Position numbers and translations under genes: made by a program
In this document: one piece after another, positions 908 through 45,310 of the stretch
Layout: the number at the start of each line of letters is the position of its first letter
Numbering within the stretch: position 1 is the stretch's first letter
DNA from: Escherichia coli
GTDB taxonomy: Bacteria; Pseudomonadota; Gammaproteobacteria; Enterobacterales; Enterobacteriaceae
Assembly (NCBI RefSeq): GCF_003334255.1
Contig: NZ_QOWU01000024.1
DNA: 64,000 nt
Direction: 5' to 3' (one strand)
The notes under the pieces: generated by a model
What the model was told of the DNA's origin: nothing
Database searches by the model: none
Seen by the model: only the letters and a program-made list of their open reading frames with translations

Positions 908-943
908 TGTAGGCCGGATAAGGCGTTCACGCCGCATCCGGCA
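908..943. repeat. REP unit, opposite orientation (BIME-like pair with 845-873)
   Basis: gtaggccggataaggcgttcacgccgcatccggcatg: canonical REP sequence; the same 36-mer core recurs at 22841-22880. Confidence 0.7.
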
Positions 944-14281: not shown

Positions 14282-15238
14282 TTAAAACAGCGCCTTAAGC
14301 CTATCCAGCACTTGCATGGCGCTGTAGTAATCCAGACGGAACGTCTCGGTTCCCAGCGCATAAACCTGCTTGTTTTGTACTGCAGGCAGGTGCGCGAGCA
14401 GCGGATTAGCATAAATAGCATCGGCATCTTTCTGATCACCGGCGAACAGGAATAGTGACTCGCCATTTAACCCTGCAGCCAGATTTTCCCCACCAAGCTG
14501 AATGATGTCATGGCGTTTACCCTGACTTTGGCTGGCATTTAACCCTGCGGGTAACTTCGCCAGCGTAAAGCCGAGTTGTTCCAGCATCTGCCCTTGTGCT
14601 GATTCTGGCGTCCAGAGATTGGCACTGTGTGCAGCGGCAGTATAGACAATGGCAGTGACCGGCTGCGGCGGTAATTTGATTTGCTCTTTCGCCGCCGCCA
14701 GTTGCTTATCAAACTGCGCAATCCGCTCTGCCGCTTGTTTCTCATGCCCGGTAATTTCGCCAAGTTGCGTTAACAGCGACTGCCAGCTTTTGTCGTCGTA
14801 ATTGATGATTAATGTCGGGGCGATGGTGGAAAGCTGATCATACAGTGCCAGCGCCGAATCCCCGCCGGTTGCGCTAATTAAAATCAGATCCGGCATTTGC
14901 GCGGCAACGGCTTCGGCGCTCGGTTCGCCGATATAGAGCCGTTGCAGTTTGCGTTCTTTCGCCACCTTGCTCCACTGGCGTAAAAAGCCCTGGTCATCCG
15001 CGACGCGGTTATTCGGCGTGGTCGCGCCGCTGGCGATCACCGGAGCATCAATCGCCAGCAGTGAGCCGGTCAGGGTGACGCTGGTGGAAACAATACGCTG
15101 CGGCTGGCTTTCCAGTGTATGTGTGCCACGGCTGTCAGTAATCTGACGCGGCCAGTCAGCGGCCTGAACTGCGGCTATTCCTGAAAGCAAAAGTCCTGTT
15201 AATAGAAGGGCGTTGCGGTAGAGCGGGGCGAGTCTCAC
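14282..15238 (-). CDS. fepB: Periplasmic ferric enterobactin-binding protein
   Basis: 318 aa, GTG start, signal peptide [26 protein letters not shown]; recognised as FepB. Confidence 0.93.
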
Positions 15239-15304: not shown

Positions 15305-15412
15305 TCCCCTCGCCCCTTTGGGGAGAGGGTTAGGGTGAGGGGAACAGCCAGCACTGGTGCGAACATTAACCCTCACCCCAGCCCTCACCCTGGAAGGGAG
15401 AGGGGGCAGAAC
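15305..15412. repeat. GC-rich palindromic repeat units (boxC/RIP-like) within the fepB 5' leader region
   Basis: cccctcgcccctttggggagaggg ... ttagggtgagggg ... aaccctcacccc ... gggagaggggg: nested inverted repeats of CCCTC/GAGGG-type motifs; a related unit recurs at 22770-22825. Confidence 0.5.
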
Positions 15413-15585: not shown

Positions 15586-15612
15586 AGCCTTTATCATTTT
15601 GTGGAGGATGAT

Positions 15613-16788
15613 ATGGATACGTCACTGGCTGAGGAAGTACAGCAGACCATGGCAACACTTGCGCCCAATCGCTTTTTCTTTATGTCGCCGTACCGCAGTT
15701 TTACGACGTCAGGATGTTTCGCCCGCTTCGATGAACCGGCTGTGAACGGGGATTCGCCCGACAGTCCCTTCCAGCAAAAACTCGCCGCGCTGTTTGCCGA
15801 TGCCAAAGCGCAGGGCATCAAAAATCCGGTGATGGTCGGGGCGATTCCCTTCGATCCACGTCAGCCTTCGTCGCTGTATATTCCTGAATCCTGGCAGTCG
15901 TTCTCCCGTCAGGAAAAACAAGCTTCCGCACGCCGTTTCACCCGCAGCCAGTCGCTGAATGTGGTGGAACGCCAGGCAATTCCGGAGCAAACCACGTTTG
16001 AACAGATGGTTGCCCGCGCCGCCGCACTTACCGCCACGCCGCAGGTCGACAAAGTGGTGTTGTCACGGTTGATTGATATCACCACTGACGCCGCCATTGA
16101 TAGTGGCGTATTGCTGGAACGGTTGATTGCGCAAAACCCGGTTAGTTACAACTTCCATGTTCCGCTGGCTGATGGTGGCGTCCTGCTGGGGGCCAGCCCG
16201 GAACTGCTGCTACGTAAAGACGGCGAGCGTTTTAGCTCCATTCCGTTAGCCGGTTCCGCGCGTCGTCAGCCGGATGAAGTGCTCGATCGCGAAGCAGGTA
16301 ATCGTCTGCTGGCGTCAGAAAAAGATCGCCATGAACATGAACTGGTGACTCAGGCGATGAAAGAGGTACTGCGCGAACGCAGTAGTGAGTTACACGTTCC
16401 TTCTTCTCCACAGCTGATCACCACGCCGACGCTGTGGCATCTCGCAACTCCCTTTGAAGGTAAAGCGAATTCGCAAGAAAACGCACTGACTCTGGCCTGT
16501 CTGCTGCATCCGACCCCCGCGCTGAGCGGTTTCCCGCATCAGGCCGCGACCCAGGTTATTGCTGAACTGGAACCGTTCGACCGCGAACTGTTTGGCGGCA
16601 TTGTGGGTTGGTGTGACAGCGAAGGTAACGGCGAATGGGTGGTGACCATCCGCTGCGCGAAGCTGCGGGAAAATCAGGTGCGTCTGTTTGCCGGAGCGGG
16701 GATTGTGCCTGCGTCGTCACCGTTGGGTGAGTGGCGCGAAACAGGCGTCAAACTTTCTACCATGTTGAACGTTTTTGGATTGCATTAA
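15613..16788 (+). CDS. entC: Isochorismate synthase
   Basis: Translation from [23 protein letters not shown]... (391 aa) recognised as EntC. Confidence 0.95.
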
Positions 16789-19279: not shown

Positions 19280-20441
<1,162 letters not shown>

Positions 20442-20483
20442 ACCCGACAGAATTAGATGAGATTGCAGGAAAACTCGGTTAAC

Positions 20484-20505
20484 GGAGTGATCGAGTTAAC
20501 ATTGT
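20484..20505. promoter_or_regulatory. Candidate CRP site in the cstA promoter
   Basis: gagtgatcgagttaacattg approximates TGTGA-N6-TCACA; cstA is known to be cAMP-CRP dependent. Exact site not verified. Confidence 0.4.
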
Positions 20506-20621
20506 TAAGTTAAATATTGGTTTCAACTCCGATTTACATGGTTGCTGTGTTGTTAAATTGTACAAAGATGTTATAGAAACAAAATGTAACATCTCTATGG
20601 ACACGCACACGGATAACAACT

Positions 20622-22727
20622 ATGAACAAATCAGGGAAATACCTCGTCTGGACAGTGCTCTCTGTAATGGGAGCATTTGCTCTGGGATACATTGCTTTAA
20701 ATCGTGGGGAACAGATCAACGCGCTGTGGATTGTGGTGGCGTCGGTCTGTATCTATCTGATCGCTTACCGTTTTTATGGGCTGTATATCGCCAAAAATGT
20801 GCTGGCGGTTGACCCGACGCGTATGACGCCAGCGGTGCGCCATAACGACGGGCTGGACTATGTGCCGACGGACAAGAAAGTGCTGTTCGGTCACCATTTT
20901 GCGGCCATTGCCGGAGCAGGTCCGCTGGTGGGGCCGGTACTGGCGGCGCAAATGGGCTACCTGCCGGGGATGATCTGGCTGCTCGCTGGGGTGGTTCTCG
21001 CCGGTGCGGTGCAGGATTTCATGGTGCTGTTTGTTTCTACGCGCCGTGACGGTCGCTCGCTGGGTGAGCTGGTCAAAGAAGAGATGGGGCCAACCGCCGG
21101 GGTGATTGCGCTGGTGGCCTGCTTTATGATCATGGTCATTATCCTTGCAGTGCTGGCGATGATCGTGGTGAAAGCCCTGACTCATAGCCCGTGGGGAACA
21201 TATACCGTTGCGTTCACCATTCCGCTGGCGCTGTTTATGGGGATCTACCTGCGCTATCTGCGTCCGGGGCGTATTGGCGAAGTGTCGGTCATCGGTCTGG
21301 TATTCCTGATTTTCGCCATTATCTCTGGCGGCTGGGTGGCAGAAAGTCCGACCTGGGCACCGTACTTTGACTTTACCGGCGTGCAGTTGACCTGGATGCT
21401 GGTGGGTTACGGTTTTGTGGCGGCGGTGCTGCCGGTGTGGTTACTGCTGGCCCCGCGTGACTACCTCTCTACCTTCCTGAAAATCGGGACTATCGTCGGT
21501 CTGGCGGTAGGCATTTTGATTATGCGCCCGACGCTGACCATGCCTGCGCTGACCAAATTTGTCGATGGCACTGGCCCGGTATGGACCGGTAACCTGTTCC
21601 CGTTCCTGTTTATCACCATCGCCTGTGGCGCGGTGTCTGGCTTCCATGCGCTGATCTCTTCTGGGACCACGCCGAAGATGCTGGCGAACGAAGGGCAGGC
21701 GTGCTTTATCGGCTACGGTGGGATGTTAATGGAATCCTTCGTGGCGATTATGGCGCTGGTTTCCGCCTGTATCATCGATCCGGGCGTGTATTTTGCCATG
21801 AACAGCCCGATGGCGGTGCTGGCTCCGGCAGGGACGGCGGATGTGGTCGCTTCTGCCGCGCAGGTGGTGAGTAGCTGGGGCTTTAGCATTACACCAGATA
21901 CGCTAAACCAGATTGCCAGCGAAGTGGGTGAACAGTCGATCATTTCCCGTGCGGGCGGTGCGCCGACGCTGGCGGTGGGGATGGCCTACATTCTGCACGG
22001 CGCGCTGGGCGGCATGATGGATGTGGCGTTCTGGTATCACTTCGCCATTTTGTTTGAAGCACTGTTTATTCTGACGGCGGTGGATGCAGGTACGCGTGCT
22101 GCGCGCTTTATGTTGCAGGATCTGCTGGGCGTGGTGTCTCCTGGCCTGAAGCGGACCGATTCACTGCCTGCTAACCTGCTGGCAACAGCGCTGTGCGTAC
22201 TGGCGTGGGGCTACTTCCTCCATCAGGGCGTGGTCGATCCGCTGGGCGGCATTAACACTCTGTGGCCGCTGTTTGGTATTGCCAACCAGATGCTGGCAGG
22301 GATGGCGCTGATGCTCTGTGCCGTGGTGTTGTTCAAGATGAAACGTCAACGTTACGCCTGGGTGGCGCTGGTACCAACGGCCTGGCTGCTGATTTGTACC
22401 CTGACCGCAGGCTGGCAGAAAGCGTTTAGCCCGGATGCGAAAGTCGGCTTCCTGGCCATTGCTAATAAGTTCCAGGCAATGATCGACAGCGGCAATATTC
22501 CGTCGCAGTATACTGAGTCACAGCTGGCGCAACTGGTGTTCAACAACCGTCTGGATGCCGGGTTAACCATCTTCTTTATGGTGGTCGTGGTGGTTCTGGC
22601 ACTGTTCTCGATTAAGACGGCACTTGCGGCATTGAAAGATCCGAAGCCAACGGCGAAAGAAACGCCGTATGAACCAATGCCGGAAAATGTCGAGGAGATC
22701 GTGGCGCAGGCAAAAGGCGCACACTAA
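20622..22727 (+). CDS. cstA: Carbon starvation protein A (peptide/pyruvate transporter family)
   Basis: 701 aa polytopic membrane protein recognised as CstA. Confidence 0.95.
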   Translation: MNKSGKYLVWTVLSVMGAFALGYIALNRGEQINALWIVVASVCIYLIAYRFYGLYIAKNVLAVDPTRMTPAVRHNDGLDYVPTDKKVLFGHHFAAIAGAGPLVGPVLAAQMGYLPGMIWLLAGVVLAGAVQDFMVLFVSTRRDGRSLGELVKEEMGPTAGVIALVACFMIMVIILAVLAMIVVKALTHSPWGTYTVAFTIPLALFMGIYLRYLRPGRIGEVSVIGLVFLIFAIISGGWVAESPTWAPYFDFTGVQLTWMLVGYGFVAAVLPVWLLLAPRDYLSTFLKIGTIVGLAVGILIMRPTLTMPALTKFVDGTGPVWTGNLFPFLFITIACGAVSGFHALISSGTTPKMLANEGQACFIGYGGMLMESFVAIMALVSACIIDPGVYFAMNSPMAVLAPAGTADVVASAAQVVSSWGFSITPDTLNQIASEVGEQSIISRAGGAPTLAVGMAYILHGALGGMMDVAFWYHFAILFEALFILTAVDAGTRAARFMLQDLLGVVSPGLKRTDSLPANLLATALCVLAWGYFLHQGVVDPLGGINTLWPLFGIANQMLAGMALMLCAVVLFKMKRQRYAWVALVPTAWLLICTLTAGWQKAFSPDAKVGFLAIANKFQAMIDSGNIPSQYTESQLAQLVFNNRLDAGLTIFFMVVVVVLALFSIKTALAALKDPKPTAKETPYEPMPENVEEIVAQAKGAH

Positions 22728-22769
22728 AGTCAGAGTGAGGGGGGGATGTTGGCGAATGTTGGCTTAGTG

Positions 22770-22825
22770 CCCAGGGTTCCCTCTCACCCTAACCCTCTCC
22801 CCGGTGGGGCGAGGGGACTGACCGA
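22770..22825. repeat. GC-rich boxC/RIP-like palindromic unit
   Basis: cccagggttccctctcaccctaaccctctccccggtggggcgaggggactgacc; related to the 15305-15412 units. Confidence 0.5.
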
Positions 22826-22840
22826 GCGCGTTGATAGCAT

Positions 22841-22880
22841 TTGTAGGCCGGATAAGGCGTTCACGCCGCATCCGGCACTC
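22841..22880. repeat. REP unit
   Basis: tgtaggccggataaggcgttcacgccgcatccggcactc; same 36-mer core as the REP at 908-943. Confidence 0.7.
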
Positions 22881-22909
22881 TTTCAGCAACATGGTTAGCG
22901 GAGGCCAAG

Positions 22910-23107
22910 ATGTTTGATTCACTGGCAAAAGCCGGAAAATATTTAGGTCAGGCGGCGAAGCTGATGATTGGTATGCCTGATTACGACAACTATGTCGAAC
23001 ATATGCGGGTTAACCATCCCGATCAAACGCCGATGACCTACGAAGAGTTTTTCCGTGAGCGGCAGGACGCGCGCTACGGTGGAAAAGGCGGCGCGCGCTG
23101 CTGCTAA
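22910..23107 (+). CDS. ybdD: Small DUF466-family protein, CstA partner
   Basis: 65 aa [58 protein letters not shown]...; recognised as YbdD. Confidence 0.88.
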
Positions 23108-23116
23108 ATTTGTACG

Positions 23117-24205
23117 TCAGGCTTTAAACGATTCCACTTTTTTGAACGCTGCACGCAACGTATCTGGTGTCAGCGTGACTGGCAGGTAATGAATGGACTC
23201 CACCGGACGCAGGGTGTGGGCAATCACTTTGTCGATCTCCGCCTGATTATTGATATCCACTTCCAGCTCCGCCAGTGTAGTCGGCAGATGAAAACGCTGA
23301 TACGCTCCAGTTAATTGCGCCAGCACATCATCCTGACCCAGCAAGGCGCTTTGCACCAGAATTCCGTAGGCGACTTTGGTGCCGTGGAGAAACTTCTCGG
23401 TTTGCGGCAGCACGGTCAGACCGTTATGCACGGCATGAGCTGCCGCCACACGCGTAAAACGATCGCCCAGACCACCAACCATCCCACCACCAGCAATAAT
23501 AGCATCCACCACATCGCAAAATGATTGCGTTAACTGTTGATTTTGCTGATCGCTCAGCGCCTGTTCGCTACTGTTTAACAAGACGTCGCGAATGGCTTGC
23601 GCATTATTGATCCCCAGTCGCACGGTTAGCGGCAACGTTTCTGGTTGCGGAGCCAGCACCACCGCTTCATACCATTTCGCCAGCGTGTCACCGATCCCCG
23701 CCAGCAGATATTGTTGCGGTGCATTGAGGATAATCTCCGGTTCCACCAGCACCATAAAATTGGCGTCGTCGAAAATCTCATAATGCAGCGCCTGTCCGGC
23801 ATCATTATACCAGACGGAGAGCGGTGTCCAGGCGGCGCAGGTGGCGGCGATCGTCGGAACGGCAACAAACGGCAGACCGAGACGGCGGGCGAGGGCTTTC
23901 GCGGTGTCGAGCAGTGCACCGCCACCGACGCCAATCACCACGCTGCGGTCGTCACCGGACTCAGCCGCCAGTTGTTGTACATCGCTTTCGCTGCAATGAC
24001 CGCGAAACAAAATATGCTTTGCCCCTGGCAGTCCAAACGCTGGCGGAAGTTTGGTTTGCGCCGCAGCAATGGCGCGTTTGCCGTAGATCCACACCGCGCG
24101 AGAAAGTTGTTCATCAGTGAAAAAATCGTGCAGGTGATTGAAACTTCCTGGATGTGAAAAGTAGTTAGCCGGGCCGACGACCACGCGGATAGGATTGTGA
24201 GGCAT
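23117..24205 (-). CDS. ybdH: Iron-containing (glycerol-dehydrogenase-like) alcohol dehydrogenase family protein
   Basis: 362 aa; GGGALLDTAK-type NAD-binding motif of the group III ADH family; recognised as YbdH. Confidence 0.88.
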   Translation of the reverse strand: MPHNPIRVVVGPANYFSHPGSFNHLHDFFTDEQLSRAVWIYGKRAIAAAQTKLPPAFGLPGAKHILFRGHCSESDVQQLAAESGDDRSVVIGVGGGALLDTAKALARRLGLPFVAVPTIAATCAAWTPLSVWYNDAGQALHYEIFDDANFMVLVEPEIILNAPQQYLLAGIGDTLAKWYEAVVLAPQPETLPLTVRLGINNAQAIRDVLLNSSEQALSDQQNQQLTQSFCDVVDAIIAGGGMVGGLGDRFTRVAAAHAVHNGLTVLPQTEKFLHGTKVAYGILVQSALLGQDDVLAQLTGAYQRFHLPTTLAELEVDINNQAEIDKVIAHTLRPVESIHYLPVTLTPDTLRAAFKKVESFKA

Positions 24206-35731: not shown

Positions 35732-35780
35732 AATGGGTGTGGAACTCATACATACACTGAATACTATCTATTAAATCATA

Positions 35781-35815
35781 AAAAAGCCCGCCAGGTGGGC
35801 TTACCTGGCGGGCGT
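35781..35815 (-). terminator. Rho-independent terminator downstream of citT (minus strand)
   Basis: gcccgccaggtgggcttacctggcgggc hairpin; on the minus strand it is followed by a T-run (ttttttatgattt). Confidence 0.7.
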
Positions 35816-35844
35816 GATGATTTATTCAGCGTTTGGCGAACGTA

Positions 35845-45270: not shown

Positions 45271-45310
45271 CATGATAAAGCCGGAGGAAACTTGCCTCCG
45301 GCATTACTAT

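Follow-up and report, generated by a model that had tools for sequence, protein, structure and literature searches.

The genes cstA and ybdD of Escherichia coli lie one behind the other on the same strand and are separated by 182 nucleotides. We analyzed this spacer within a window of 64,000 nt, by which we mean the whole stretch of DNA under study. The window is E. coli K-12 DNA; its segment 22600–23110 is 100% identical to MG1655 and related strains, and window positions are converted into MG1655 coordinates with an offset of 609272, derived from the gene calls and RefSeq. The genes and elements in and around the spacer are the following.

20622–22727, plus strand: cstA, the upstream gene, an open reading frame of 701 aa (RefSeq b0598) for a pyruvate/peptide transporter
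22722 (MG1655 631994), minus strand: peak of a Rho-termination region, antisense to cstA (PMC7815308, supplementary file 2)
22728–22909: the cstA-ybdD spacer, 182 nt
22732–22790, plus strand: hairpin H1, beginning 5 nt past the cstA stop codon, −23.2 kcal/mol
22746–22765, plus strand: 10-nt tandem unit (G)AATGTTGGC in the loop of H1, 1–3 copies by strain in the allele alignment
22775–22840, minus strand: BoxC/PIT/TMECO/HPG1 unit, core 22779–22816, conserved flank to about 22840
22793–22815, plus strand: hairpin H2, predicted for the BoxC core within a cstA-ybdD mRNA, CCCUCUCCCC-GGU-GGGGCGAGGG
22826 (MG1655 632098), plus strand: RNA 3′ end from Term-seq (Adams et al. 2021, PMC7815308, supplementary files 1 and 3)
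22841–22880, no strand assigned: single Y-type REP, GTAG foot 22841–22844, stem 22847–22876
22900–22904, plus strand: Shine-Dalgarno motif GGAGG of ybdD, 5 nt before the ATG, read from the sequence
22910–23107, plus strand: ybdD, 65 aa, PF04328/DUF466 family (RefSeq b4512)

RefSeq places hcxA/ybdH convergent to the gene pair, and its annotation of MG1655 shows the spacer without any feature. The expression of cstA is reported to be under CsrA control. Constitutive pyruvate uptake requires cstA and ybdD together, which act as one system (Hwang et al. 2018, PMC5847655); operon data are absent from that paper. A sequence-only reading of this DNA had described the 182 bp between the genes as mostly repeats. 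Its gene calls were right, and about 148 of the 182 nt (81%) are repeat-derived. Open reading frames within the spacer, for example 22746–22898, are artefacts of the repeat sequence. The spacer is filled by two well-known families of dispersed repeats, BoxC and REP.

The REP had been placed at 22841–22880 already in the sequence-only reading, and this is borne out by its foot, by an identical copy and by its hairpin. The GTAG foot, the recognition feature of TnpA-REP/RAYT, stands just before GCCGGAT. The REP pattern GCCGGATAAGGCGTTCACGCCGCATCCGGC occupies 22847–22876 and is found a second time, identical over 30 nt, at window position 913–942, where shuffled sequences are expected to give 0 matches. 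With two arms of 14 nt each (22847–22860 and 22863–22876) that are 86% complementary, the element is an imperfect palindrome; its hairpin has −21.1 kcal/mol and z = −4.6 against dinucleotide shuffles, and the stem-loop in the mRNA would span 22845–22879. From the REP end at 22880 to the start of ybdD there are 30 nt, just as had been read. A BIME, which consists of at least two alternating REPs with linkers, is ruled out because the spacer holds one REP. In a permissive-threshold search of Rfam the family naRNA4 (RF02564), which is derived from REP325, gave a half-length match of 38.2 bits (E = 4e-5) that remains below the gathering score of 59.5, and all other matches were at chance level. 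A 511-nt query holding both the REP and the BoxC unit has a median of at least 37 places per genome.

For the second repeat the earlier reading had proposed a boxC-like unit at 22770–22825. The assignment to the BoxC family stands, but the extent has to be corrected to about 22840, as the unit carries a flank of about 25 nt common to other copies, and it lies on the minus strand. The flank was delimited in an alignment with the two window copies at 15307–15341 (plus) and 15370–15404 (minus) and with copies from other genera, and the shared part reads AAATGnnATCAAnGCGCnCGGTCnG. On the minus strand the core reads CCCTCGCCCC-ACC-GGGGAGAGGG-TTA-GGGTGAGaGGG. The family has received several names. 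According to PMC4666352 BoxC is the original name from the 1990s, PIT stands for potential intrastrand triplex element and TMECO is the name of the intrastrand-triplex motif; HPG1 denotes a G-quadruplex/hairpin motif (PMC5100583). PMC5100583 already tabulates the copy in the spacer; the entry, MG1655 632058 (minus), gives distances of 51 bp to cstA and 108 bp to ybdD. It is strictly intergenic, that is, it lies between the stop codon of cstA and the start codon of ybdD. The 65-nt segment 22766–22830 has a median of 14 places per genome and occurs in 5,411 of 5,426 complete E. coli genomes.

The K-12 copy deviates from the strict TMECO consensus CCCTCNCCC-N3-6-GGGNGAGGG-N3-GGGNGAGGG (PMC4666352) by one G-to-A exchange in its third block, the last G block (GGGTGAGaGGG). 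This mismatch falls in a Hoogsteen block. When the last three bases of the consensus are omitted it matches at 22783–22815 on the minus strand, with 0 matches expected by chance, and the O157 allele of the same cstA-ybdD locus agrees with the strict pattern. Judged by its sequence, the K-12 BoxC is a point-mutated family member outside the strict pattern for triplex prediction. Triplex formation and G-quadruplex/hairpin switching were seen only in vitro with consensus oligonucleotides (PMC5100583, PMC4666352), and in vivo footprinting does not support a stable triplex.

Hairpin H1 combines the 5′ arm AGAGTGAGGGGGGG with the first C block of BoxC as 3′ arm. Since the H1 segment aligns collinearly with the inverted pair of BoxC copies at 15307–15404, its 5′ arm resembles the final G block of a truncated BoxC, and H1 is probably what remains of a second copy in inverted orientation. 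H1 is found in all Escherichia alleles, E. albertii included. The 10-nt unit GAATGTTGGC in its loop is a small VNTR with 1 to 3 copies across E. coli strains; TRF reports period 10 and 3.0 copies for strain E50 (L004 445–474), and the K-12 array falls under the TRF threshold. The inverted pair itself consists of two strict BoxC/TMECO copies 28 nt apart and forms a long composite palindrome between the divergent open reading frames 14282–15238 (minus) and 15601–16788 (plus), presumably fepB and entC.

H2 is predicted at −17.2 kcal/mol and accounts for 76% of the ensemble. The fold of the full K-12 spacer is not significantly above shuffles (z = −1.5), a weak value that we attribute to the GC-rich sequence of the spacer. 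Elsewhere in the window the short intergenic spacers 35750–35844 (co-directional gene pair, z = −6.9) and 45271–45310 (convergent pair, z = −5.4) fold far above shuffles and are probably REPs or terminators. The tails past H2 and the REP are GACUGACC and ACUCUUUC. An intrinsic, Rho-independent terminator is ruled out by the absence of a U-tract behind H1, H2 or the REP, and a consensus scan found no terminator-like site within 22728–22909.

The Term-seq 3′ end at 22826 was mapped in stationary phase, in LB at OD600 2.0, is classed as “orphan” and lies at −84 from the ybdD ATG (PMC7815308). It is the sole published Term-seq 3′ end in the K-12 spacer, seen in one condition with a low read count. 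The position is 11 nt past H2 and 15 nt before the REP and is without a U-tract. This end points to the BoxC hairpin no less than to the REP. RNase II and PNPase stall at such structures, and exonuclease trimming leaves ends like one 11 nt past a stem that lacks a U-tract. The end at 22826 is consistent with exonuclease trimming at H2. Its proximity to BoxC is mildly unexpected, since earlier reporter assays cited in PMC4666352 had shown neither promoter nor terminator activity for PIT/BoxC elements. The list of Adams et al. 2021 (PMC7815308) has no end at the REP or downstream of ybdD, and the two remaining growth conditions yield none. Two further 3′ ends of this study fall just inside the start of cstA, at window positions 20642 and 20682 (MG1655 629914 and 629954, plus strand), and suggest premature termination or processing in the cstA leader or early open reading frame.

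Co-transcription of the two genes was the condition under which the sequence-only reading gave the REP a role. The comparison with other species makes co-transcription plausible. A scan for YbdD with one genome per species gave 80 loci, 76 of them with usable upstream sequence, and in 76 of 76 of these Enterobacteriaceae loci cstA lies directly upstream of ybdD on the same strand. The spacers have a median length of 63 nt and range from 14 to 195 nt, so that K-12 with 182 nt is near the top. The invariant adjacency and the short spacers favor one operon, and a consensus scan found no promoter-like site in the K-12 spacer. In Salmonella cstA and ybdD are reported to be co-induced. It could be argued that cstA and ybdD are separate units in K-12, with the hairpins ending the cstA transcript and a promoter for ybdD in the spacer or in the 3′ end of cstA. 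The mapped end at 22826 indeed falls upstream of ybdD, a spacer of 182 nt could accommodate a promoter and the promoter scan is insensitive, as it returned zero plus-strand sites in 20300–23400, where the cstA promoter should be. We nevertheless consider separate units improbable. The spacer without a promoter-like site is 81% repeat sequence, the hairpins are without U-tracts, the spacers of 14–63 nt in most genera are too small for a promoter, the genes are co-induced in Salmonella and neither cstA nor ybdD is present in the TSS table that we searched. The published transcript datasets that we searched gave no TSS, full-length or read-through transcript for ybdD; the supplements of SMRT-Cappable-seq, Dar & Sorek 2018 (PLoS Genet) and Romero 2014 hold no entry for cstA or ybdD.

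Translational coupling, which had also been proposed in the earlier reading, is excluded by the gap of 182 nt between stop and start codon and by the GGAGG motif of ybdD itself, which is kept in all Escherichia alleles of our alignment. The predicted cost of opening the ribosome-binding site is 7.2 kcal/mol in K-12, 7.8 in O157, 6.1 in E50, 5.6 in the REP-only allele and 2.1 in B2. In this purely thermodynamic prediction the spread stems from substitutions downstream of the REP and not from the REP itself.

The spacer also has to be considered from the other strand. The Rho peak at 22722 marks the end of read-through from hcxA, antisense to ybdD and the spacer, at the low resolution that results from computing the Rho score over 800-nt windows. 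ExcludonFinder lists ybdD-hcxA as a convergent excludon (PMC12288877). Taken together, the Rho region and this listing imply that the repeat cluster is also transcribed antisense, within a long hcxA 3′ UTR. The cluster could then act mainly on this strand, with a G-quadruplex-capable BoxC strand in the hcxA 3′ UTR antisense to ybdD, or at the level of DNA as non-B DNA, a gyrase-binding site or a recombination hot spot. The Rho peak lies just beyond the cluster and the locus is highly variable; the G-rich strand of BoxC is the minus strand, and G-quadruplex/hairpin switching as well as triplex formation have been seen in vitro. We regard such a role as very improbable in view of the coarse Rho score, the footprinting result and the many alleles without BoxC, which speak against a required function; moreover, the Term-seq list has no end on the minus strand here (PMC7815308).

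Within E. coli the spacer occurs in several architectures.

182/181 nt: BoxC and REP (K-12, O157)
154/143 nt: BoxC only, the lengths differing by copies of the 10-nt unit GAATGTTGGC (E50, EC11)
127 nt: REP only (CFSAN061763)
112 nt: neither repeat; H1, a coreless BoxC flank and a small hairpin, GCCCTC...GAGGGC, are present (phylogroup B2, as in clone D i14 and Nissle 1917)

Junction-specific megablast queries of 5,426 genomes found BoxC and REP together in at least 3,690, neither in 1,187, REP only in 134 and BoxC only in 125, the rest being unclassified. The REP is absent from about a quarter of the E. coli genomes. In genomes without BoxC or REP both flanking genes are intact. Since each repeat is missing from hundreds to more than 1,000 such genomes, a necessary or conserved function is excluded for both. 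E. albertii, E. whittamii and a cryptic Escherichia clade have H1 and the REP and no BoxC. This distribution makes it probable that the REP goes further back in the genus and that the BoxC core was gained or lost inside E. coli, in agreement with the published variability of TMECO loci. In the B2 allele (clone D i14, L002 470–500) the flank CCGAGCGTGTTGATAG is retained and the BoxC core is gone; at the REP position there is a Citrobacter-like hairpin GCCCTC...GAGGGC, followed by ATTTGT. This allele suggests deletion scars and repeated remodelling of the spacer.

Such polymorphism speaks for the main rival explanation, in which the repeats are selfish or neutral passengers of an insertion-tolerant spacer and leave the expression of cstA and ybdD without measurable change. 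In E. coli at least four architectures segregate between intact genes, and the B2 allele with its flank and no core resembles a deletion scar. TMECO/BoxC loci are reported to be unusually variable between strains and, as mentioned, without promoter or terminator activity, and the effects of REPs are reported to be highly context-dependent. Against this explanation speak the Term-seq 3′ end directly after the BoxC hairpin and the recurrence of a hairpin in 73 of 76 spacers despite the turnover of sequence, and also between btsT and yjiX. In our view it is possible but rather unlikely.

The hairpins of the other genera deserve a closer look. All spacers of at least 47 nt hold a strong hairpin of −16 kcal/mol or better, and only three loci, from three genera and with spacers of 14–20 nt, are without one. 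Against dinucleotide shuffles z is below −2 in 62 of 72 cstA-ybdD spacers (median z = −3.3) and in 2 of 10 other co-directional spacers of the window, a comparison in which the 72 loci are phylogenetically related, the control is small and the statistics ignore kinship. The hairpins are non-homologous and belong to at least seven unrelated sequence families. Citrobacter, Salmonella and Kosakonia have stems of the CCCTCTCC type, Enterobacter and Lelliottia a different REP family (GCCGGGTGGCGC...), Kluyvera CCCGGCC stems and Atlantibacter a terminator-like stem, and in several genera we found single or paired BoxC. Of the 72 spacers, 8 have 5 or more U within 8 nt of tail, and 22 have 4 or more. 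The paralogous gene pair of K-12 has a spacer of 49 nt, whose hairpin of −20.4 kcal/mol (z = −3.1) has a GC stem of 8 bp that is closed by a UUCG loop and followed by a U-rich tail.

MG1655, L007 2081–2129, minus strand: btsT-yjiX spacer with terminator-like AGCCCCGC-UUCG-GCGGGGCU, then UUGUUCUU

In almost all Enterobacteriaceae, and in the paralogous pair as well, the position retains some GC-rich hairpin whose sequence is interchangeable, which is a mildly novel angle on these repeats. One may go further and postulate a selected structural slot between the gene of the CstA family and its DUF466 partner, in cstA-ybdD and btsT-yjiX alike. A stem-loop would be required there for the ratio of the two messages while its sequence would be free, and lineages would refill the slot with any hairpin at hand, be it a simple terminator-like stem, a REP of one or another family or a single or paired BoxC. 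The four architectures of E. coli would then be an allelic series in CstA:YbdD output and pyruvate uptake, and BoxC would be a determinant of RNA 3′ ends despite the negative reporter assays. We regard this extension as rather improbable.

Some loci of the scan are peculiar. Tenebrionibacter intestinalis (L042) has the longest spacer, 195 nt, and the protein encoded upstream shares only 45% identity with the C-terminus of CstA; this locus seems to be rearranged or to carry a divergent paralogue. A 465-bp contig labelled Streptomyces sp. DH24 (L012) encodes a 98% identical YbdD, and a MAG contig labelled “Bacillota bacterium” (L038) carries an Enterobacter-like cstA-ybdD locus. Both are probably contamination or mis-binning in public assemblies.

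We favor, with a probability of roughly 0.55, a reading in which the spacer is the intercistronic region of a cstA-ybdD unit that was colonized in the K-12 lineage by a truncated BoxC, a full minus-strand BoxC and a Y-type REP, whose hairpins serve as exonuclease barriers and/or weak attenuators. It builds on the identity of the repeats, their hairpin potential, their polymorphism, the synteny and the one 3′ end from the literature; co-transcription in K-12, the barrier or attenuator mechanism and an effect on the CstA:YbdD ratio are what we infer from these. We suggest that events on the message could proceed as follows. In the cstA-ybdD mRNA the repeats are predicted to fold into three consecutive stem-loops, H1, H2 and the REP. 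These would be barriers to 3′-to-5′ exonucleases and/or weak, possibly Rho-assisted, attenuators. Transcripts of cstA alone, ending just past a hairpin, would accumulate and only part of the message would carry ybdD. On the read-through RNA the strong ribosome-binding site of ybdD would allow its independent translation. The repeats would be recent and strain-variable occupants of the spacer which tune expression and are not essential. Any effect they have must be dispensable, given the 1,187 genomes without both repeats and the three genera without a hairpin.

The sequence-only reading had suggested that the REP could control the ratio of the transporter and its small partner. This agrees with the established behavior of REPs, which are partial Rho-dependent terminators and stabilizers of the upstream mRNA (preprint 10.64898/2026.03.23.713779). 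For 146 REP-containing tandem pairs the median log up/down ratio is 0.96 versus −0.09 in controls, and the effects are strongly context-dependent with large variance (10.64898/2026.03.23.713779). The mapped 3′ end, on the other hand, follows BoxC and none is listed at the REP. The proposal was a reasonable use of a known mechanism, is partly supported by the synteny and the one public 3′ end and over-weights the REP.

The classic case of an intercistronic REP is malE-malF. With such Y-type REPs, including REP325 in yjdM-yjdN, the element described here shares the family sequence, the GTAG foot and the imperfect palindrome. It likewise lies between co-directional genes of one functional unit, of which the upstream one is expected to be favored. 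It is single, in contrast to the multi-REP array of REP325. Unlike in the known intercistronic cases there is no mapped 3′ end at the REP, and the element is absent in about a quarter of the E. coli genomes. It also differs from stop-proximal REPs, for which Liang, Rudd and Deutscher reportedly described a mechanism with ribosome stalling in 2015. This mechanism is inapplicable to the spacer REP, because the latter is more than 110 nt from the cstA stop codon. To invoke it for H1, which begins 5 nt past the stop codon, would be speculation.

With the BoxC/PIT/TMECO/HPG1 family the spacer copy shares the three-block C/G/G build, the 25-nt flank, the intergenic position, the multiple copies and the strain-variable locus. 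It departs from strict TMECO by the G-to-A exchange in the third block, and cstA is missing from the main text of PMC4666352. It is atypical in being fused to a truncated inverted partner, and an RNA 3′ end maps just after it, whereas the family is reported to be without terminator activity. As in operons that are tuned by intercistronic stem-loops, a stable GC-rich hairpin is found between a large gene and a small downstream partner, and its position is conserved across genera and in btsT-yjiX. Unlike in those operons the canonical U-rich tail is present in only 8 of 72 spacers, the sequence is not conserved and the role here is putative. The likeliest role of the cluster is that of a strain-variable hairpin barrier or attenuator which biases the message toward cstA over ybdD.

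Both repeat families, this BoxC copy and the standard REP mechanism are already known. The finding is real but ordinary and as it stands matters little; the repeats probably only fine-tune the amount of message that reaches ybdD. Its value is that of a test case. CstA and YbdD have a joint phenotype in pyruvate uptake and 3-fluoropyruvate sensitivity, and the natural E. coli alleles are ready-made constructs with and without BoxC and REP. Such a test case could show whether dispersed repeats tune the ratio of genes within an operon and whether BoxC can define RNA 3′ ends.
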